Shown here piece after piece: positions 10,134 through 50,292 of a stretch of 64,000 nucleotides of DNA. The DNA comes from an uncultured Sandaracinus sp. (GTDB lineage: Bacteria > Myxococcota_A > Polyangia > Polyangiales > Houyiibacteriaceae): assembly GCA_964462035.1 (NCBI GenBank), contig CAYXAP010000029.1, positions 14,472-78,471 of the forward strand, in the 5' to 3' direction. The position numbers and the translations under genes were made by a program. How positions within the stretch are numbered: position 1 is the first letter of the stretch; the number at the start of each line of letters is the position of its first letter. The notes under the pieces were generated by a model. That model searched no databases and was not told the origin of the DNA. It was given only the letters and a program-made list of their open reading frames with translations.

Positions 10134-10565
10134 TCAGCGGAGCTCGGGCGGCGCGTCCTGCGGACGGCCGATGTAGAGCATGATCCCCGTCGCCGGTCCC
10201 TGACCGTCACTCGTGAGGAAGAGGCCGAACTTCCCGACCTGCCCCTGATAGAGCGACCGGCCGTCGAACGAGAAGAACTGCCGGCCATCGCGGAACGAGA
10301 CCACCCAGAAGTCACGGGTCGCCGTGAGCCGGATCGGCGCGTCCGCTTCCGCGTCCACGATGCCCTTCACCAGGAAGACCATCGGGACCGCGTCCCCCTG
10401 TTTGAACTCGAACCAGACCACCTCTTCGTTCTCGGCGGAGGCGAGCTGCGCTGGCGAGGCCTGCGCGAAACGGATCCGAGGGCCTTGCGGCGCCCCGCAG
10501 GCAGACAGGCTCGCGATGGTGATCGCGAGCATCGAGAGGGAAGCGTGGCGGAGAAGGCCCTTCAT
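10134..10565 (-). CDS. Hypothetical lipoprotein
   Basis: MKGLLRHASLSMLAITIASLSACGAP (lipobox), with a beta-rich mature part. I recognise no family. Confidence 0.6.
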   Translation of the reverse strand: MKGLLRHASLSMLAITIASLSACGAPQGPRIRFAQASPAQLASAENEEVVWFEFKQGDAVPMVFLVKGIVDAEADAPIRLTATRDFWVVSFRDGRQFFSFDGRSLYQGQVGKFGLFLTSDGQGPATGIMLYIGRPQDAPPELR

Positions 10566-18017: not shown

Positions 18018-19835
18018 TCAGTCGCAGACGGTGACGCCGGCCGTCATGGTGCAGCCGAAGTCGTCACAGTCCGCGAAGCCGTTGCCGTCATTGTCGAGGC
18101 CATCGGTGCAGAGCGCGTTCGTGATCTCGGCACAGACGGTCACCGAGGGGTTCCGGCTGCAGTCCCAATCGTCGCAGTCCACGAAGCCATCGGCGTCGTT
18201 GTCCAGGCCGTCGCTGCAGCGAGCGTTGGTCGTCTCGAGGCAGGCGTTGACCCCGTCACAGTCGTCGTCCTCGCAGTCCACGAAGCCGTCGCCGTCGTTG
18301 TCGAAGCCGTCGCTGCAGGCGCGGTTGGTGTTCTCGGCGCACACCGTGACCGACGGGTTTCGGCTGCAGCTGTAGTCCTCGCAATCCACGAACCCATCCA
18401 TGTCGTTGTCGATGCCATCCATGCAGCGGGCGTTCGTGTTCTCGTCTTCGACGCAGACGAACGACTCATCCGTCGCTCCGTCGCAGTCGTCGTCCTGCGA
18501 GTTGCAGGTCTCGTCCACCGGCCCAGTGGCGCCCTCGCAGGCGCCGTACGAACCGGCGACGCAGGTCTGAGTTCCCTTCTCACAGGCGCCGACGCTCGAG
18601 CCGCACGCCTGGGTCTCCCCATCGATGCACGCGCACCCTTCGTCGGTCACGCCATCGCAGTCGTTGTCGAGCCCGTCGCAGCGCGTCTCGACCATTTGAT
18701 AGCTCGGCCCGTAGCGCGTGGGAGTGCAGGCCTCGAAGCCCGCGGCGCCGGCGCAGCGGCGGGTGGTGCCAGCGCACACGCCGTCGGTGAGCGCGCATGC
18801 CGGTCCCACGACGCCCTCGTCGGTGCTGGCGTCGCAGTCGTCGTCCTCCCCATCGCAGGTCTCCACGGAGGGACCGATCTCGCCAGCGCAGCTTCCGTAG
18901 GCGCCGCTCACGCAGATCTGCATGCCCTGCTGGCACGCTCCGATGTCGGAGCCACAGCTCTGGCTCTCCCCGTCGATGCATGCGCAACCCTCGTCGGTCA
19001 CACCGTCGCAGTCGTTGTCGAGCCCATCGCAGAGCGTCTCGGTCGCCTGATAGTCCCCGCCGTAGCTGGTGGTGCCCTCGCAGGCGAGGAAGCCGGCGGC
19101 GCCCCCGCACGCGCGCTCGGATCCGACGCAGACGCCGAGCTGCAGTGGGCAGTCGGGCGGGCTCAGCTCACCGGGCTCGTCGCTGTCGCCGTCGCAATCG
19201 TCGTCCACGCCGTTGCACGTCTCGCCCATCGGTTCGACCGCGCCTTCGCAGGCCCCCCAGCTGCCGGCCACGCAGGTCTGCGTGCCCATCTCGCAAGCGC
19301 CCGTCGCCGACCCGCAGGCCTGCGTCGCACCAATCGTGCACGCGCAGCCCTCATCCGTCGATCCGTCACAGTCGTTGTCCAGCCCATCGCATGAGCTCTC
19401 GTCGCTCTCGTAGTCCTCGCCGTACTCCGACGCTTCGCAGACGAGCACCGCGTCCACGCACCGGGGCGCGCCGCCGACGCACACGCCTTCCGTCAGCGGG
19501 CAGACGCCGATGACGTTCTCGTCGACCGAGTCGTCACAGTCGTCGTCGACCCCATTGCAACGCTCGAGGGCCAGTGGATGGATCGTCGCGTCGGCGTCAT
19601 TGCAGTCGGGGCCGTTCTCGCACCCGCGACCGAAGCCGTCCTCGTCCATATCGACGCAGGTCGCGTCACCTCCGCCATCGGTATCGGTGCCGGCGTCTTC
19701 GACCTCGCCACCGTCGACGTCCGGCGCCGCTCCGTCGGCCAAGGCCATGTCGGGCTCGACGTCGCCCCCGTCGTCATCGCCGCACGCGATGGAGCAGAGG
19801 AGGCCGAGAAGAAGGAGCCGGTGGAGGTACTGCAT
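18018..19835 (-). CDS. Large repeat lipoprotein built from MopE-like CDGxDNDCDG Cys/Asp motifs plus four C-terminal CxDGxDNDxDGFxDCxD repeats
   Basis: ORF 18018..20522. The plausible start is the ATG at 19835, giving MQYLHRLLLLGLLCSIACGDDDGG (lipobox). The ORF portion upstream of it is Arg/Pro-rich junk that overlaps the real + strand gene 20007..20744. There are three super-repeats of 117-120 aa, each starting CDGLDNDCDG(S/V)TDEGCAC. Confidence 0.75.
   Translation of the reverse strand: MQYLHRLLLLGLLCSIACGDDDGGDVEPDMALADGAAPDVDGGEVEDAGTDTDGGGDATCVDMDEDGFGRGCENGPDCNDADATIHPLALERCNGVDDDCDDSVDENVIGVCPLTEGVCVGGAPRCVDAVLVCEASEYGEDYESDESSCDGLDNDCDGSTDEGCACTIGATQACGSATGACEMGTQTCVAGSWGACEGAVEPMGETCNGVDDDCDGDSDEPGELSPPDCPLQLGVCVGSERACGGAAGFLACEGTTSYGGDYQATETLCDGLDNDCDGVTDEGCACIDGESQSCGSDIGACQQGMQICVSGAYGSCAGEIGPSVETCDGEDDDCDASTDEGVVGPACALTDGVCAGTTRRCAGAAGFEACTPTRYGPSYQMVETRCDGLDNDCDGVTDEGCACIDGETQACGSSVGACEKGTQTCVAGSYGACEGATGPVDETCNSQDDDCDGATDESFVCVEDENTNARCMDGIDNDMDGFVDCEDYSCSRNPSVTVCAENTNRACSDGFDNDGDGFVDCEDDDCDGVNACLETTNARCSDGLDNDADGFVDCDDWDCSRNPSVTVCAEITNALCTDGLDNDGNGFADCDDFGCTMTAGVTVCD
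18440..19400 (-). repeat. Intragenic tandem super-repeat (period about 351-360 nt, about 3 copies) encoding the Cys-rich modules
   Basis: Near-identical DNA blocks recur at about 18650, 19000 and 19360, e.g. gtcac(g/a)cc(a/g)tcgcagtcgttgtcgagccc(g/a)tcgca. The period was counted from the protein repeats (117 and 120 aa). Confidence 0.7.
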
Positions 19836-20006: not shown

Positions 20007-20744
20007 ATGGCAAGGGCGCTTCGGGGCGCTATGGTCGGGCCGATGGGCCGCGCGCTCCTGCTCCTGGCGATCTGTGGTGGCTGTGCCGCAGCGAACCCCT
20101 CGTGGGAGGGCGGGTCGACCACACCCGAGCACCGGACCGATCTCGCCGCTGGCGCCGCGGTCCGCGTGCCCGTCGCGAACATGCGCGACCCGGGCCCCGC
20201 CGAGAGCAGCTACCGACAGGTCGCGGAGAGTGGCGGGATGGTGCCGGTGGCGATGGGTCGCTACGGGCTCGATGGCTTCGACCTCGGGTTGATGGTCGCC
20301 GGTCCGATGGTGCGGCTCGACCTGCGACGGGAGATCGTGCTCGCCAACGGCTCGACGCGGAAGGCGCTGGTGTTCGCGGTCTCGCCCTTCGCCGGTGCGA
20401 TCCCGGAAGACGACGATCGCGGGTCGGGCGCACGCTTCGGCGGTGAGGTGCGGGCCGCCTACGGTGCCGACATCGGCGGGCTCTACGACGCGTGGATCGG
20501 AGTCCGGCTGGGTGTGGAGCACGCCCGCGGGGACCTATTGCTGGCCGGCGACTACGAGCTCGCCACCGGGACCGCCCTGCGAGCAGGCGCGGTGATCGGC
20601 ATGGCCGCCGGGTTTCGACGGCTCCATGCGTTCATCGAGGTCACCGCGTGGGCGGAAGGCTGGTTCGCGAGCCATGGCGATCTGGATCTCGACCGCTTCG
20701 GGCTGGTGCTCACCCCGAGCTTTGGCTTCCGCGTCCGCATCTGA
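20007..20744 (+). CDS. Hypothetical lipoprotein, possibly an outer-membrane beta-barrel-like protein
   Basis: ORF 19578..20744. The ATG at 20007 gives MARALRGAMVGPMGRALLLLAICGGCAAAN (lipobox). It is rich in Gly and alternating residues and ends ...LTPSFGFRVRI. A strong terminator follows. Confidence 0.6.
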   Translation: MARALRGAMVGPMGRALLLLAICGGCAAANPSWEGGSTTPEHRTDLAAGAAVRVPVANMRDPGPAESSYRQVAESGGMVPVAMGRYGLDGFDLGLMVAGPMVRLDLRREIVLANGSTRKALVFAVSPFAGAIPEDDDRGSGARFGGEVRAAYGADIGGLYDAWIGVRLGVEHARGDLLLAGDYELATGTALRAGAVIGMAAGFRRLHAFIEVTAWAEGWFASHGDLDLDRFGLVLTPSFGFRVRI

Positions 20745-20761
20745 ACGGCCGTGCACCGCCG

Positions 20762-20783
20762 ACCGGCCATTCGGCCGGTTTTT
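20762..20783 (+). terminator. Rho-independent terminator
   Basis: ACCGGCC-ATTC-GGCCGGT stem-loop followed by a T-run (TTTT), 18 nt after the TGA at 20742-20744. Confidence 0.8.
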
Positions 20784-20895
20784 GCCGTTCCGCGATTTCG
20801 AACCGTGACCAGTCGGACAGGAATCGTGAAAAGGGGTCACGGGTGAGACTCGTCGATTGCCGCGATTTTTCCGGGTCTTCGGCTATGCTTCGGCC

Positions 20896-22710
20896 ATGCC
20901 GAGCCTGAAGTGGATCGTGGCGGAGGGGCGACCCCACACGTTCCCCATCTACAAGAAGATCACGACCATCGGCCGCGGCGGTGCCAACGACGTGGTGATC
21001 GAGGACGGAAGCCTCGAGACGAACCACGCGCAGATCGTCTTCGACGGCCGTGACTTCAACCTCTCGGAGGTCGACAAGAAGGGCTCGGTGGCGGTCAACG
21101 GCAAGAAGCGCCGCAAGACCAAGATCTTCCACAACGACCGCATCGTCATGGGCGAGGTCGACCTGGTCTTCAGCGTCTACGACGAGGTCGAGCACGCCAC
21201 GAGCGAAGCCGAAGACGATCGCAGCGCCGAGCTCGCCGGCATGATGAAGCTCAGCGAGTTCAACCGGCGGCTGCTCGAGATCCGCTCGGTCCCGGAGCAG
21301 ATCACCGCCCTGCTCGACGCGGTCATCGAGGTCACCCACGCGGCCAAGGGCTTCATCATCCTGACCCGGAACGACGAGCCGGAGATCGCGGCCGCCCGGA
21401 ACCTGGATCAGAAGGACATCACCGACGGCGTCCGGCATCTGTCGGACAGCATCATCCGCCGCTGCATCGACACCCGAACGCCGCTGATCGTCAGCGACGC
21501 GCTCCACGACTCGATGTTCGGGACCTCCGAGAGCGTGATGAGCCTGAAGCTCTGCTCGGTGATGGTGGCGCCGCTGATCTCGCAGGGTCAGCTGCTCGGT
21601 CTGATCTACGTCGGCAACGACAACGTGGTGAGCCTCTTCGAGGACTCGTCACTCGACATCCTGACGATCTTCGCCGGCCAGGCCTCGCTGATTCTCCAGA
21701 ACGCGATGCTCATGGACGAGGTGGTCATGGACCGCGACCGGATGGCCGGTGAGCTCGACGTGAAGAAGTTCGGCGACATCATCGGCTCCTGCCCGAGCCT
21801 CCTCGAGGTCTTCAACAAGGTCGAGAAGGTCGCGAGCGCGAACATCAACGTGCTCATCACCGGAGAGACCGGCACCGGCAAGGAGCTGATCGCCCGCGAG
21901 ATCCACCGCCGCTCGCCGCGCAAGGACGAGCCCTTCGTGGTCGTGAACTGCGGAGCGATCCCCGAGAACCTGATGGAGTCGGAGCTCTTCGGTCACGTCC
22001 GCGGCGCGTTCACCGGCGCGGTCGCGACGCGCGACGGCAAGTTCCAGCAGGCGGACAAGGGCACCCTCTTCCTCGACGAGATCGGCGAGATGCCGCTCTC
22101 GCTGCAGGTGAAGCTCCTGCGCGCGATCCAGGAGCGCGTGGTGATGAAGGTCGGCGACAGCAAGCAGCAATCGGTCGACATCCGCGTGGTCGCAGCGACC
22201 AACCGAGACCTCGAAGCGGAGATCCAGAACAACGCCTTCCGCGAAGATCTCTTCTACCGGCTCAACGTGGTGAACCTACACCTCCCGCCGCTCCGTGAGC
22301 GTGGGGACGACGTGGTGGTCATCGCCAAGTACCTGCTCAACAAATACTCCCAGGAGTACGGCTCGGCAGTGAAGGGCTTCACCCCGGGCGCACTCGCCGC
22401 GATGCGGAAATACAACTGGCCCGGCAACGTCCGGCAGCTCGAGAACCGCATCAAGAAAGCGATCGTCCTAGCGGACAAGACGCTGGTCGGGAGCGAGGAC
22501 CTCGACCTCTTCCCGGAGGCGCTCAAGCCAGTCGCCCCGCTGAGCGAGGCCCGCGAGGACTTCACCCGCCGCTACATCCTCGAGATCCTCGAGCGCAACG
22601 ACGGAAACCGGACCAAGACGGCGCGCGATCTGGGCGTCGATCCCCGGACGATCTTCCGATACCTCGAACGCGAGCCCGACGCCCCGGAGCCCGGGCGCGC
22701 TCGCGACTGA
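20896..22710 (+). CDS. Sigma-54-dependent transcriptional activator (bEBP) with FHA - GAF - AAA+ - Fis-type HTH architecture
   Basis: ATG at 20896. FHA-like N-terminus ([30 protein letters not shown]). AAA+ core with Walker A GETGTGKE, an intact GAFTGA loop ([10 protein letters not shown]), Walker [10 protein letters not shown], and [22 protein letters not shown]-terminal [23 protein letters not shown]. Confidence 0.9.
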
Positions 22711-22819
22711 TCGCAACAGAACGTGCACCGGCCCGGGATCCCGGACATTTTTGTCGGACCGGTTCCGCTGACGATGAAGTCCACTCACGAAAAACCCAAT
22801 GATTTCAGACCAGGATGTC

Positions 22820-22836
22820 CTGGCACATGGGTTGCT
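22820..22836 (+). promoter_or_regulatory. Sigma-54 (-24/-12) promoter CTGGCACATGGGTTGCT
   Basis: It matches the consensus YTGGCACGrNNNTTGCW at every invariant position (TGGCAC-N5-TTGC-T). It lies 110 nt after the bEBP stop, in a locally less GC-rich spacer. Confidence 0.75.
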
Positions 22837-22848
22837 CTCCTGAAGGGC

Positions 22849-23418
22849 ATGGGCTCGCTGCGCGCCTCGACCCGGTTCGCGCTGCCCATCCTCGCGATGT
22901 TCCTCACTCCCCTCACGAACGGCTGCCTGATCACGGACCCGATCGACATCCCGCAGGAGGAGAACGTCCCGCCCTCCATCGTCAGTGACAACGCGGCGCC
23001 GGAACCCCGCTACCCGATCGAGCAGATCGTCACCCTCGACCGTGACGTGGACGAGTCGCTGAGGTTCGACGTGATCGTCCGCGACCCGAACCTCGACGAT
23101 GAGCTGGAGTGGGCGGTCTACTACAACTTCGAAGCGGGCGGAGCGAACACCATCTTGGTGCCGGGCCGCCTCGGCAAAGCCGAGGAGCTCGAGCGCCCCC
23201 TCTTCTTCGAGCTCAACGATCTCACCCGCTTCACTCGTGGGCTCTGCCACAAGATCGAGCTCCGAGTATCGCGTGACCTCCAGGCCGATGGCTTCCCCCC
23301 GCCGCCACCCGAGGACGTGACCGACCCGCCTCCGCTCGATCTCGCGGTGGCCGTGTGGTGGATCAACTCGCTCTCGGAAGACGGCACCCCGACCGACCTC
23401 GCGACATGCCCCGACTGA
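22849..23418 (+). CDS. Hypothetical secreted protein / probable lipoprotein, first gene of the sigma-54-driven operon
   Basis: ORF 22723..23418. The ATG at 22849 gives MGSLRASTRFALPILAMFLTPLTNGCLITDP (signal peptide with Cys; the lipobox is non-ideal). I recognise no family. It overlaps the next gene by 13 nt. Confidence 0.6.
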   Translation: MGSLRASTRFALPILAMFLTPLTNGCLITDPIDIPQEENVPPSIVSDNAAPEPRYPIEQIVTLDRDVDESLRFDVIVRDPNLDDELEWAVYYNFEAGGANTILVPGRLGKAEELERPLFFELNDLTRFTRGLCHKIELRVSRDLQADGFPPPPPEDVTDPPPLDLAVAVWWINSLSEDGTPTDLATCPD

Positions 23419-25106
23419 TCTCTCCCCGACACTGGCTTCTCGTGCTCGGAGCGATGGTGCTCGCGGGCTGCGGCTTGGTGGGCCTCGACCCCGAGGTCCA
23501 GAACGTCTGCTCGAACGACTCCGAGTGTGGCGAGTACAGCTGCGACTCCGATCGCGGGATGTGCGTGGCCGATGTCACCACCCCCTACACGATGGTGCTC
23601 GAGGTCACGCCGAACGCCGCGACCGACAGCGCGCTGCCGACCTGGCGCAGCGGCGACGTGGCCTTCGAAGGCGCCCGTGAGTGGCCGGTCCGGCTCGACG
23701 CCTACGTCGAGCTCCGCGGCACCGTCCGGTGGGGCGGTGAGCGAGTCGACGCCGAGCTCATCTTCAGCCGACCGGGCCTCGAGGGCCGACCGGTGCAGCG
23801 CCTGCGCACCAACACCTTCGACGAAGCGCGCTCCGCGGACGACCAGGAATACGACTTCGCCATCCGGCTGCCCGCTGGTGCGACCTTCACCGTGGAGGTT
23901 CGACCGAGCGGTGCGATGCGCGCCGATGGCAGCTGGCTGACCACGCTCCCTCCGCTCTACTTCAGCCCGCCGGCGCTCCCCGTGGCCGAGCCCGGCGTGG
24001 CCGCGCAGATCCTCTACCAGCCCTTCGACTACCCGGAAGGGCTCGCGACGGCCTGCTCACGAGAGGTGCGCTCTGGCTGCACGCTCGCGGGTTCGGTGCT
24101 CGCGATGGAAGACGGCACGCCGCAACCGCAGGAGGGCCTGCAGGTGCGGGCCGTCGACCTCGAAGGGCGCGTGGTCTCCTCGGCCGCCTTCACCGATGAG
24201 GAAGGGCTCTTCTCGCTGGTCCTCGGCCCGCGTGTCGAGAGCTACCTCATCCGAGTCAGCGCCTCGAGCGACCGACCCCTCTTCCCGACCATCAAGGTCG
24301 ACCCGGCGTTCCTCACCGAAGAGTTCACCATCCGGGTGCCGACCACCCAGGTCATCGAGTACGAGGGCCGCGTCGAGGCGCCGAACGAGGACCCGATCGC
24401 GGGCGCGACCATCACCTTCCGCACCGACTCCGTGACGGACCCGACCACGGGCATCGCCGGCAGCTTCGAGACCACCGCGACCTCCGACGAAGACGGCCAC
24501 TTCGCGGCAACGCTCCTGGCGGGTGACTACGAAGTCGTCGTGACGCCGCTCTCGGGGCAGCTCACCGTCCTGACCGAGGAGCTCTCCATCACGGCGAGCG
24601 AGGGCGTGGACATCCTGCGCGGACAGCTCTTCACCCTGAAGCGGGCGAGCCAGCTCGGCGCCACCATCACCGACTTCGCCGGACGGCAGGTCCCCGCCGC
24701 GACCGTGCAGGCCTCGGCGCTGGCGCGACCCTTCGAAGACCTGCCGGCGAGCGAGTTCAACCGCACTCAAATGGCCACCGCGGACGAGACGGGTCAGGCG
24801 ACCGTGCCCCTCGACGTCGGCGTCTACGACGTGACCTTCCGCGGCGGCAGCACCGCTGGCTACGCCTGGCGCATCATGCCGGAGGTCGCCGTGCTCGACC
24901 CGGGCACCACGCTCATGGAGAGCATCGTTCTCCAGGCCCCGGTCCCGGTCAGCGGCGACGTCCTCGGCCCCGACGAGATGCCCCTGGTCGACGCCGAGGT
25001 CCGAGCCTTCGCCCGCACGGAGTCCGGCCGCTATGTCGAGATCGGCAGCGGTCGAACGGACGTCAGCGGTCGCTACGAGCTGCTGCTCCCGCCCTCGATC
25101 GAGTAG
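23406..25106 (+). CDS. Lipoprotein with several carboxypeptidase-regulatory-like (CarboxypepD_reg / Ig-like beta-sandwich) repeats
   Basis: ORF 23355..25106. The ATG at 23406 gives MPRLISPRHWLLVLGAMVLAGCG (lipobox). It has repeated motifs such as TDEEGLFSLVLGP, SDEDGHFAATLLAGDYEVVV, ADETGQATVPLDVGVYDVTF and TDVSGRYELLLPP. Confidence 0.65.
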   Translation: MPRLISPRHWLLVLGAMVLAGCGLVGLDPEVQNVCSNDSECGEYSCDSDRGMCVADVTTPYTMVLEVTPNAATDSALPTWRSGDVAFEGAREWPVRLDAYVELRGTVRWGGERVDAELIFSRPGLEGRPVQRLRTNTFDEARSADDQEYDFAIRLPAGATFTVEVRPSGAMRADGSWLTTLPPLYFSPPALPVAEPGVAAQILYQPFDYPEGLATACSREVRSGCTLAGSVLAMEDGTPQPQEGLQVRAVDLEGRVVSSAAFTDEEGLFSLVLGPRVESYLIRVSASSDRPLFPTIKVDPAFLTEEFTIRVPTTQVIEYEGRVEAPNEDPIAGATITFRTDSVTDPTTGIAGSFETTATSDEDGHFAATLLAGDYEVVVTPLSGQLTVLTEELSITASEGVDILRGQLFTLKRASQLGATITDFAGRQVPAATVQASALARPFEDLPASEFNRTQMATADETGQATVPLDVGVYDVTFRGGSTAGYAWRIMPEVAVLDPGTTLMESIVLQAPVPVSGDVLGPDEMPLVDAEVRAFARTESGRYVEIGSGRTDVSGRYELLLPPSIE

Positions 25107-25209: not shown

Positions 25210-26376
25210 TCACTCGGCGCAGTGAGCCCCGCAGAAGCTCCACCCGCCACCTGGCACCCCACGCGGCGCATGCTCCTCCAGGAAGCGCACCGCATCATCC
25301 ACGTCGTCGGTGAGGTGGATCAGATCGCCATAGACGTGGCCCTTCGCGAGCTTCTCCAGCACCGGATAGATCGGCTTCTCTTCGGTCCAGTACGCCGTGT
25401 CCAGGAAGACCATCGGACTCGCCATGTCTCCGACCGTGCCGTAGTGGTTCTGGGCCGCGTCCTGGAAGATCTCCTGAATCGTCCCCGCGCTCCCCGGCGC
25501 GTACACGATCCCGTGCGAGGCCACGCTGATCAGGCCGTCCTCGCGCACGCTGTTGGCGAAGTACTTGGCCACGTGGGTCGCGAAGAGGTTGGGGGGCTCG
25601 TGACCGTAGAGGAAGGTGGGGATGCCGAGGCTCCGGCCGCAGCGCTCGTCGACCGGGTGGGCTTCGCGAGCGCGGAAGGCGGCGGCGAGCCATTCGCGGT
25701 CCTGGTAGCTCGGTGCTTCGGCGAGAATCCGCAGCCCATCGGTGAGCGCGTCGTCCCCGCGGTGCGCGAAGTGGGTGCCGACGTGCGTGGCCTCCATCGC
25801 GCCAGGGCCACCGCCGCTCACCAGGAAGAAGCCCTTCTCGGCCAAGCTGCGGCTCATACGCGCGACCGCGGCGAAGCGCGGGTGGTCGCGCTCCATCGAG
25901 TGGCCACCCATGACGGCGACCACCGGCGCGTCGATGCCCTCCAGCAGCGTCTCCATCGCGTCGGTCATCGCGTGGTCGTGCAGCCGTCGTGCGAGCGCCT
26001 CGAGCACCGAGCCGGGGAACTGCCGGCCGGTGTCCACCCAGTGCCGGTAGATCTGCGCGTCGGGTGTGTCGCAGTAGGTGCAGGGGTCGGTCGGATCGAA
26101 GCCGGCGAAGAGCTCGTCGGGCGTGTAGAGCCGGTTGCGGTAGGGGTCGAAGGGCAGGTCGCCGATGCGAGGAAAAACCAGCGCGCCACGGCAGACCACG
26201 TCGGCGATGACGGCAGGACTCAGCTTGCAGCCGAGGAAGACCGCACCCGCGACGTCGTGTTCGCCCAGCCGGCCTTCGACCGCCCGCAGATCGAGCCCGT
26301 TGAAGACGATCACCCCGAGCGGCCCGGAGGCCTCCAGCAGGTGCCGCGCCACCTCGACATCATGGACCTCGCGCAT
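25210..26376 (-). CDS. LOG / lysine-decarboxylase-like (Rossmann nucleotide-binding) family protein with an N-terminal extension of about 150 aa
   Basis: LVSGGGPGAMEATHVG and VYAPGSAGTIQEIFQ resemble the two LOG-superfamily motifs (GGGxGxME / PGGxGTxxE). The N-terminal region (VIVFNGLDLRAVEGRLGEHDVAGAVFLGCKL) is unassigned. Confidence 0.5.
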   Translation of the reverse strand: MREVHDVEVARHLLEASGPLGVIVFNGLDLRAVEGRLGEHDVAGAVFLGCKLSPAVIADVVCRGALVFPRIGDLPFDPYRNRLYTPDELFAGFDPTDPCTYCDTPDAQIYRHWVDTGRQFPGSVLEALARRLHDHAMTDAMETLLEGIDAPVVAVMGGHSMERDHPRFAAVARMSRSLAEKGFFLVSGGGPGAMEATHVGTHFAHRGDDALTDGLRILAEAPSYQDREWLAAAFRAREAHPVDERCGRSLGIPTFLYGHEPPNLFATHVAKYFANSVREDGLISVASHGIVYAPGSAGTIQEIFQDAAQNHYGTVGDMASPMVFLDTAYWTEEKPIYPVLEKLAKGHVYGDLIHLTDDVDDAVRFLEEHAPRGVPGGGWSFCGAHCAE

Positions 26377-49443: not shown

Positions 49444-50292
49444 ATGCCCAACGACTCGGCGAAGGTCTCCGATGAGGTCGCGACGCTGGCCGGCCTGCAC
49501 GACTGGCTCCGGCTGGTGCTCACCTACCGTGCGCCGCATCCGGACTCGCAGCGGATCCTGGAGCTGATCGAGCACCTGCTCGACCGGCCGCACAAGGCCC
49601 ACGTGCTGCTCTACGGTGAGCCCGGGACGGGCAAGGAAGGGCTGGCACGCGCGCTGCACCAGGCCATGCACCCCGGCGGCAAGGCACCATTCATCAAGAT
49701 GCCCACCGGCGGACGCGACCCGAGGGTCCTCGCGCTGCACCTCTTCGGGACCCAGGAGAAGCGCGGTGCGGTGGCACGGGCCGAGGGGGGCACGCTCTTC
49801 CTCGACGAGGTCGGGACGCTTCCGCGCGAGATCCAGGCGCGGCTCACACCGGTGCTCCGCGGCCGCTACCGCCGGAACGACGACGAAGCCCCGCAGCCCT
49901 GCCACGTGACCGTGATCGGCGCGACGGACCACGACCTGGAATCCCAGGTCGCCGAGGGCCGCTTCCGCCACGACCTCTACTACCGGCTCTCCCGCGCAGA
50001 GCTGACCATCCCGCCCCTGCGCGAGCGCGACGAGGACATCCCTCGCGCGGCCCTCTGGTCGGCCAACCGCTTGCTCAAGGAGCGGGGTGAGAGCACGCGA
50101 CTCGTGGCTGAAGGGGAAGACGCCGGCGAGGGCGACATCATCCTCACCGAAGGCGCAGGCGACGTCCTCCGAGGCCACGGCTGGGCCGGCAACTTCCGCG
50201 AGCTCGACCGGCTGATGGAGCGTCTGCTCTTCCTGAGCGAGCGCCAGCCGACGCTGACCGAAGACGCCGTGCGTTCGGCGCTGGAGGCCTGA
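49444..50292 (+). CDS. Stand-alone sigma-54-interaction-type AAA+ protein lacking the GAFTGA loop and any DNA-binding domain
   Basis: Walker A GEPGTGKE, Walker B GTLFLDEVG, RHDLYYRL, PPLRERDEDI, WAGNFRELD. Where GAFTGA is expected it reads LFGTQEKRGAVARA. The protein ends right after the AAA+ lid. Confidence 0.75.
   Translation: MPNDSAKVSDEVATLAGLHDWLRLVLTYRAPHPDSQRILELIEHLLDRPHKAHVLLYGEPGTGKEGLARALHQAMHPGGKAPFIKMPTGGRDPRVLALHLFGTQEKRGAVARAEGGTLFLDEVGTLPREIQARLTPVLRGRYRRNDDEAPQPCHVTVIGATDHDLESQVAEGRFRHDLYYRLSRAELTIPPLRERDEDIPRAALWSANRLLKERGESTRLVAEGEDAGEGDIILTEGAGDVLRGHGWAGNFRELDRLMERLLFLSERQPTLTEDAVRSALEA

Follow-up and report, generated by a model that had tools for sequence, protein, structure and literature searches.

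Promoters of the sigma-54 type are the textbook case of tightly controlled, activator-gated transcription, and their transcripts are normally described as having ordinary or long leaders. Here we analyze a window of 64,000 nucleotides (the whole stretch of DNA examined) from an uncultured Sandaracinus sp., in which a sigma-54-type promoter at 22820-22836 directly abuts the start codon of a probable lipoprotein gene (gene 1, 22849-23418, plus strand), downstream of the gene for an enhancer-binding protein (20896-22710, plus strand). The locus resembles the classic glnAp2/NtrC, nifH/NifA and pspA/PspF systems in its TGGCAC-N5-TTGC core, in the neighboring gene for an AAA+ activator with a GAFTGA motif and a Fis-type helix-turn-helix (HTH) domain, in a dyad about 90-100 bp upstream, and in an A/T-rich box between the two. 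Unlike in classic sigma-54 promoters, the start codon follows 14 nt after the C of the -12 element. For comparison, the 41 intergenic sense sigma-54 sites of protein genes in E. coli have predicted leaders from 18 nt (rutA) to 254 nt, with the exception of rcdA (3,739 nt), for which the start is predicted to fall within a gene; leaders of intragenic sites measure 360-760 nt, and only the small RNA (sRNA) glmY starts at the predicted site (Bonocora et al., PMC4591121, Table 1).

The second group of related systems are leaderless mRNAs, known from lambda cI and from Actinobacteria, Deinococcus and rhizobia. With these the gene 1 transcript would share the lack of a Shine-Dalgarno sequence and a start codon near the predicted 5' end, and as in sigma-70-type leaderless genes, where the -10 hexamer lies 6-7 nt before the ATG, the spacing between promoter and start codon is fixed. 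Described leaderless genes are of the sigma-70 type, often with an extended -10 (TGnTA in B. japonicum, PMC4842269), whereas the promoter here is of the sigma-54 type. Furthermore, the predicted leader is 2-3 nt and not 0, and GTG replaces ATG at 7 of 17 related loci. Start-site maps that treat both leaderless mRNAs and RpoN motifs (S. meliloti, B. japonicum, Leptospira, Caulobacter, Chlamydia) draw no link between them in their accessible parts, and a survey of sigma-54 regulons published in 2025 is silent on leaderless transcripts (PMC12316311). We found no description of a leaderless sigma-54 mRNA, Myxococcus included, in the accessible literature, although this is weak evidence, as the search did not cover most subscription journals. 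We see no mechanistic reason that would rule the arrangement out.

The promoter reads CTGGCAC-ATGGG-TTGCT (CTGGCACATGGGTTGCT; 22820-22836, plus strand), with the GG at 22822-22823 and the GC at 22834-22835 exactly 10 nt apart, within the TGGCAC-N5-TTGCW consensus. Re-reading of the sequence thereby confirmed the consensus match that the initial annotation had placed here. An exact TGGCAC-N5-TTGC occurs once in the 64-kb window, where 0.03 copies are expected, and any exact match was present in 3 of 100 shuffled windows. With one mismatch allowed, two matches were found against 2.15 expected, which is chance level; the second, at 49643, lies within a coding region. A matrix derived from 42 intergenic E. 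coli sites mapped by chromatin immunoprecipitation sequencing (ChIP-seq; Bonocora et al., PMC4591121) ranked 22820-22836 first in the window on both strands, with 15.0 bits at a mean of -23 and a standard deviation of 8. The second and third matrix matches (6982 and 49642) were considered as comparison promoters and discarded, since both lie within coding regions. The third (CTGGCACGCGCGCTGCA, 49642-49658) falls into the Walker A region (…GEPGTGKEGLARALH…) of the gene for another AAA+ protein without GAFTGA and is probably a chance match or an intragenic site. An RpoN-box was not found in the six-frame translation of the window, and rpoN is not encoded in it.

We then compared 17 loci from about 14 lineages, collected from the contigs of lipoprotein homologues, a genome scan and a metagenome scan. 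All seem to stem from metagenome-assembled genomes (MAGs) of Myxococcota or 'Deltaproteobacteria', and they split into two clades, the distant one (clade B) consisting of L015, L019 and L022-24. Although the gene 1 protein diverges from 72% down to 35% identity across these loci, the promoter is retained at all 17 and in both clades; its conservation in related genomes, on which the initial annotation had made its proposal depend, is hence borne out. TGGCACATGGGTTGC is found in the close clade and L014, apart from one spacer variant, ATCGG, and the distant clade has TGGAAC-N5-CTTGC. T-GG-.-AC, TTGCT, the GG, the GC and the spacing are unchanged in both clades, and the substitutions fall within the 5-base spacer, which reads ATGGG, ATCGG, GACGC, GGCGC or GGCAC. 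A variable spacer between preserved contact positions is the pattern predicted for a -24/-12 promoter. In the alignment of the loci the 110-nt intergenic block is even more conserved than the lipoprotein that it precedes. The regulator gene lies directly 5' of the lipoprotein gene at every locus with enough upstream sequence, and a second lipoprotein gene is next in line wherever the contig extends downstream. We therefore regard 22820-22836 as a genuine, deeply conserved promoter with predicted sigma-54 dependence.

The unusual property of this promoter is its distance to the start codon. In the window, 13 nt separate the C of the -12 element from the A of the ATG (22849-22851), and at all 17 loci an RTG (10 ATG, 7 GTG) begins exactly 14 nt after this C. 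The 13 bases between them cannot be aligned across clades (tctcctgaagggc, tcactcagcgagc, tccgcatctgggg). Other distances in the same intergenic regions change: the conserved upstream dyad at 22743-22756 lies 78 or 69 nt from the promoter, and an AATGAT box common to both clades stands either 23 or 24 nt before the T of the -24 element, depending on the clade. Since these distances vary and the 14 nt never do, indels are tolerated in the intergenic region, but not between promoter and start codon. The claim that the predicted transcript has no room for a Shine-Dalgarno sequence holds for every locus, and G-runs, where present, lie 1-2 nt before the RTG and 5' of the predicted +1.

Four independent lines of evidence set the translation start of gene 1 at 22849. 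The third-position G+C content is 48% in the 25 codons of 22774-22848 and 96% in the 26 codons of 22849-22926, with 89-93% in the neighboring genes. Codon-position entropy across the loci is flat upstream (0.57/0.49/0.59) and highest at position 3 after the RTG (0.54/0.46/0.78), and all indels after the RTG are multiples of three. The shift of the AATGAT box by one nucleotide relative to the -24 element indicates that the upstream region is not one conserved reading frame. Only the RTG at 22849 provides every lineage with a basic n-region, a hydrophobic core and the invariant Cys, as had been proposed for the window, while the next in-frame ATG, originally placed at 22900, in fact occupies 22897-22899. 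The initial annotation had left the choice between a leaderless mRNA and a mis-set gene start. The constant spacing, the signal peptides and the jump in G+C favor the former and speak against the latter. Because the signal peptide is removed at Cys26, N-terminal proteomics is unsuited to fixing the start codon.

Automatic start calls conflict among the homologue gene models P0002-P0004 and P0006-P0008: three of the eight homologue models start at a non-conserved GTG 3 codons in, preceded in two cases by a GGAGG 10 nt before it, and three of the eight start 16 codons late at Met17. Such disagreement is what gene callers typically produce where a ribosome-binding site is lacking, and it should serve as a practical warning for them. 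As a separate observation, the stop codon of the regulator gene is in the frame of gene 1, and the 46 codons between them contain no stop (window 22708-22849). The same open stretch is present in L001 and absent in L002, and it looks coincidental.

To place the transcription start we relied on published rules. Bonocora et al. set it 19 bp beyond the center of the 17-nt motif, a rule that falls 1 nt off the start of the sRNA glmY (PMC4591121) and that yields 22847 for the promoter studied here. A large in vitro map for P. putida sigma-54 shows a peak of the -12 hexamer at -16 to -14 and G as the commonest initiating base; we take this peak to mark the first base of the hexamer, so that transcription would begin 11-13 nt after the C of TTGC. 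Counted from this C, G occupies position 11 in 13 of 14 lineages and position 12 likewise in 13 of 14; position 13 holds a pyrimidine, again in 13 of 14. The conserved GG at 22846-22847 is therefore our predicted start, and the most likely 5' end is G(G)C-AUG with a leader of 2-3 nt, although transcription might also begin on the R of the RTG, preceded by a pyrimidine at -1. The leader is thus 0-3 nt, and either choice leaves no Shine-Dalgarno sequence on the transcript.

From these data we consider it likely, albeit well short of certain, that an activator-dependent sigma-54 region drives a two-gene lipoprotein operon from a promoter that abuts the start codon, with a leader of 0-3 nt and translation of the leaderless type. 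The activator would be the product of the adjacent gene (20896-22710), a protein of 604 amino acids with FHA, GAF, AAA+ and lid domains and a C-terminal Fis-type HTH. Its Pfam matches comprise Sigma54_activat (1.3e-73), FHA, GAF_2, AAA_lid_14 and HTH_8. The GAFTGA loop, through which such activators contact sigma-54, is encoded at 22003, and the window contains no other copy. The regulator shares its N-terminal FHA domain with other enhancer-binding proteins of the Myxococcota, which are rich in FHA-domain sigma-54 activators (PMC12316311). For the combination of FHA and GAF with a two-lipoprotein target operon, no characterized regulator was identified as a match. The window regulator and that on the L002 contig fall into one protein cluster built at 90% identity, so that, with lipoprotein identities of 72-35%, the target lipoprotein evolves much faster than its control system.

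The regulator gene itself has features typical of a leaderless gene. Its start lacks a Shine-Dalgarno sequence, and a -10-like TATGCT is located exactly 6 nt before the ATG (window 20884-20898). TATGCT-N6-ATG is retained in all six lineages examined, the distant clade included (L001 4027-4041 and the equivalents in L002, L015, L021 and L022/L023). The regulator mRNA is probably leaderless too, transcribed from a sigma-70-type promoter. When TAnnnT was counted at offsets of 2-20 nt before candidate starts in the window and the loci (about 110 kb), offset 6 accounted for 8 of 11 cases, and control hexamers showed no peak at this offset; the numbers are small, and five of the eight cases are the orthologous regulator genes. 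Candidate starts of other genes with TAnnnT 6 (or 8) nt before them are those at 10565 (minus strand), 6527 (minus strand), 10725 (plus strand) and 2603 in L020 (plus strand). These patterns suggest that leaderless mRNAs are in use in this lineage and hint that leaderless genes are common in it. The apparent use of leaderless mRNAs makes a leaderless sigma-54 transcript more plausible.

The best candidate for the activator site is the dyad GGACA-TTTT-TGTCG at 22743-22756 (GACA-N4-TGTC at 22744-22755), centered about 97 bp before the predicted start. GGACA and GTCG are retained at all 17 loci around a 4-nt center that reads TTTT, ATTT, TTTA, TTCG or TCCG, and the window holds a single exact copy. 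With one mismatch, 47 matches were found against 37 expected, which is chance level, and a wider regulon is accordingly not visible in the window. GACA-N4-TGTC is likely the site bound by the regulator, judging from its position and conservation. It does not correspond to the known sites of NifA (TGT-N10-ACA) or NtrC.

The initial annotation had instead proposed a 12-nt palindrome, CCGGGATCCCGG, at 22733-22744 as the activator site. The palindrome is indeed present, 88 nt before the T of TGGCAC, and overlaps the dyad by 2 nt. Its role as activator site was not supported by the comparison, in which the left half is missing in L010 and L018 and the whole element is absent in L014/L021 and clade B. 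With up to one mismatch allowed, this palindrome is matched twice in the window at 1.05 expected, which is not beyond chance. Together with the following T-run it loosely resembles a terminator, a reading that we rejected, since the loop is too short, the T-run is the variable center of the dyad, and clade B lacks it. In L020 (about 255-275, corresponding to window 22733-22744) a 4-nt insertion within the palindrome, which there reads CCGGGGATCGACCCCGG, gives the loopless hairpin a 5-nt loop on a 6-bp stem, with ACATTTATG after it. Such a hairpin may play a part in some lineages, perhaps in weak termination behind the regulator gene, but it is not conserved overall.

Two further elements lie between dyad and promoter. 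The block GACCGGTTCCGCTGACGATGAAG at 22757-22779 hardly varies among nine close lineages, in which the protein is 43-72% identical to that of the window (P0009 on L002: 41%, BLASTP), and has diverged in L014 and clade B. It may be a site for a second regulator or another DNA-binding protein. Closer to the promoter, an A-tract with the AATGAT box (22798-22803) forms the element GAAAAACCCAATGATT at 22789-22804, centered about 46 bp before the predicted start. On the minus strand, 22792-22804 (AATCATTGGGTTT) agrees with the consensus of integration host factor (IHF), WATCAANNNNTTR, at 11 of 13 positions by inspection, a weak match. We regard the AATGAT region as a candidate site for an IHF-like bending protein.

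Taken together, these elements point to the following course of events. The FHA-GAF-AAA+-HTH regulator would bind the GACA-N4-TGTC dyad, and looping of the DNA, possibly aided by a bending protein at AATGAT, would bring it to the sigma-54 RNA polymerase held at the promoter. ATP hydrolysis would then open the promoter, and transcription would begin at the conserved GG or up to 2 nt beyond it. The resulting mRNA, 5'-G(G)C-AUG, would be translated in leaderless fashion, with the ribosome recognizing the start codon at its 5' end, and translation of gene 2 would be coupled to that of gene 1 through an overlap of 13 nt.

Several points weigh against this scenario. The transcription start is a prediction for an uncultured organism known from a MAG, and sigma-54 starts may shift by a few nucleotides. 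A leader of 2-3 nt is not strictly leaderless, and Krishnan et al. reportedly found in 2010 that expression in E. coli drops with growing distance between the start codon and the 5' end. At 7 of the 17 loci the start is GTG and not ATG. E. coli requires AUG as the 5'-terminal codon, while GTG is reported to work on leaderless mRNAs in mycobacteria. For E. coli, non-AUG codons are described as poor on leaderless mRNAs (PMC3616915). In the close clade, the G-rich run (GGAGG, AAGGG) 1-2 nt before the RTG could serve read-through transcripts from the regulator gene. A scan of 20600-23600 revealed no terminator between the regulator gene and gene 1, and longer transcripts may therefore exist; the same scan found no sigma-70-like promoter. 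Finally, folding of the first 42 nt of the predicted mRNAs did not give a consistently open 5' end, although such folding is uninformative in GC-rich sequence.

The strongest competing explanation, which we nevertheless judge unlikely, accepts the promoter as real but derives most of the protein from longer transcripts, produced by read-through from the regulator gene or by an unrecognized upstream promoter, so that the sigma-54 transcript would be minor or poorly translated. Translation would then use the G-rich run before the RTG or another non-canonical route. The absence of a terminator in 22710-22849 and the GGAGG or AAGGG-like runs of the close clade fit this explanation, as does the GTG chosen by gene callers 9 nt further on at three loci, which follows GGAGG by 10 nt in L003 and L008 (L001, the third locus, has no GGAGG). 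A Shine-Dalgarno sequence cannot function at a distance of only 1-2 nt, so the G-run is too close to the RTG to act in this way. Moreover, clade B (tcactcagcgagc, tcagagcatggtc) keeps the 14-nt spacing without any G-run, and in place of the alternative GTG the window has CTG, L002 has GTC and L010 has GCA, so that this codon is not conserved. Above all, dependence on longer transcripts leaves the unchanging distance from promoter to RTG unexplained.

It is improbable that the gene start is mis-set and that the true start is the ATG at 22897 (Met17), with 22847-22896 as a 5' untranslated region of roughly 50 nt. Gene callers chose Met17 on three short contigs, and it does not vary across the close clade, L014 and L015, but in L019 and L022 the Met lies elsewhere. 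A protein starting at Met17 would have 9 residues before the Cys and no basic n-region, and hence no working signal peptide. In addition, all 16 codons of 22849-22896 end in G or C, in line with the rise in third-position G+C described above, the indels between RTG and Met17 occur in threes, and no purine-rich sequence precedes 22897.

We attach very little probability to the idea that the motif is not a promoter but another DNA or RNA element, such as the binding site of a different protein or part of a structured leader. The unusual conservation of the whole 110-nt intergenic block, above that of the protein, would agree with it, and promoter activity is predicted only. Against this stand a pattern of conserved and variable positions that is exactly that of -24/-12 promoters, the constant adjacency of a GAFTGA activator and the conserved GG at the expected start; an Rfam scan of 22500-23100 with E values up to 1 matched no family. 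The remaining possibility, a longer N-terminus from the ATG at 22774 (MKSTHEKPNDF...) that would make the sigma-54-like sequence a conserved coding sequence, can practically be dismissed: an open frame in phase with gene 1 does extend from 22774 in the close clade and L014, but the region has neither the third-position G+C of its flanking genes nor codon periodicity, its conserved blocks show no variation at any codon position although the sequence between them is radically altered, the AATGAT box changes frame between clades, the exchange of ATGGG for ATCGG within the motif would mean Trp to Ser, and the product would have a signal sequence of 51 residues.

The operon predicted to be under control of this promoter encodes two probable lipoproteins. 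Gene 1 specifies 189 amino acids with the signal MGSLRASTRFALPILAMFLTPLTNG|C. Nine database matches at E<=0.001, one of which is the protein of the window itself, leave 8 homologues. By inspection, the lipoprotein-type signal MGSLRASTRFALPILAMFLTPLTNGC comprises a basic n-region, a hydrophobic core and a lipobox, and Cys26 is invariant among all homologues. The lipobox is the canonical L-S/P-G-C in clade B and L-T-x-G-C, a looser match, in the close clade. The protein has no match in Pfam. Its AlphaFold model, with a predicted local distance difference test (pLDDT) score of 77 and disordered residues 1-36, suggests an Ig-like beta-sandwich as mature domain, and a fold search of the PDB with this model returned only generic Ig-like folds with template modeling (TM) scores of 0.3-0.4 and no functional lead. 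Gene 2 (23406-25106, plus strand) encodes a probable lipoprotein of 566 amino acids (MPRLISPRHWLLVLGAMVLAGC) with carboxypeptidase-regulatory-like domains (Pfam CarboxypepD_reg, 9.4e-21, for a query of 567 amino acids that began one codon ahead of the ATG, at 23403). Its start lies within gene 1, with 13 nt shared by the two genes, and lacks a Shine-Dalgarno sequence. Gene order and overlap recur in L001-L004, with an overlap of 4 nt in L002. A convergent gene ending at 25210 limits the operon to two genes. Just upstream of the cassette, 18018-19706 (minus strand) encodes a large secreted protein that is rich in Cys and Asp and contains four putative metal-binding repeats of the MopE type (PF11617, 2.9e-23).

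Apart from the frozen 14-nt distance, which probably implies a leaderless or near-leaderless transcript, the architecture of this cassette is ordinary. Tentatively, the leaderless design might itself have a purpose: a start codon that is efficient only at the 5' end of an RNA would let sigma-54 transcripts be translated while read-through from the regulator gene stays silent. The closest precedent is the work of Levy et al. (bioRxiv 10.1101/086108), who associate translational insulation with short CT-rich motifs in sigma-54 promoters. There, too, sequence in or near the sigma-54 promoter blocks translation of read-through transcripts; unlike with the CT-rich motifs, insulation here would come from an internal start codon without a ribosome-binding site, which is purely our inference. 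If true, sigma-54 promoters, whose basal activity is known to be close to zero, would gain an additional, translational lock, read-through from the constitutive regulator gene 138 nt upstream would, as we suppose, remain without product, and the freezing of the 14-nt distance despite protein divergence to 35% identity would be explained.

If the proposed transcript structure is correct, leaderless translation would not be tied to sigma-70-type promoters, and the locus would offer a natural system for asking whether initiation that depends on the 5' end insulates a gene from read-through. Should the same spacing recur at other sigma-54 promoters of the Myxococcota, these would constitute a previously unrecognized class of sigma-54 transcripts.

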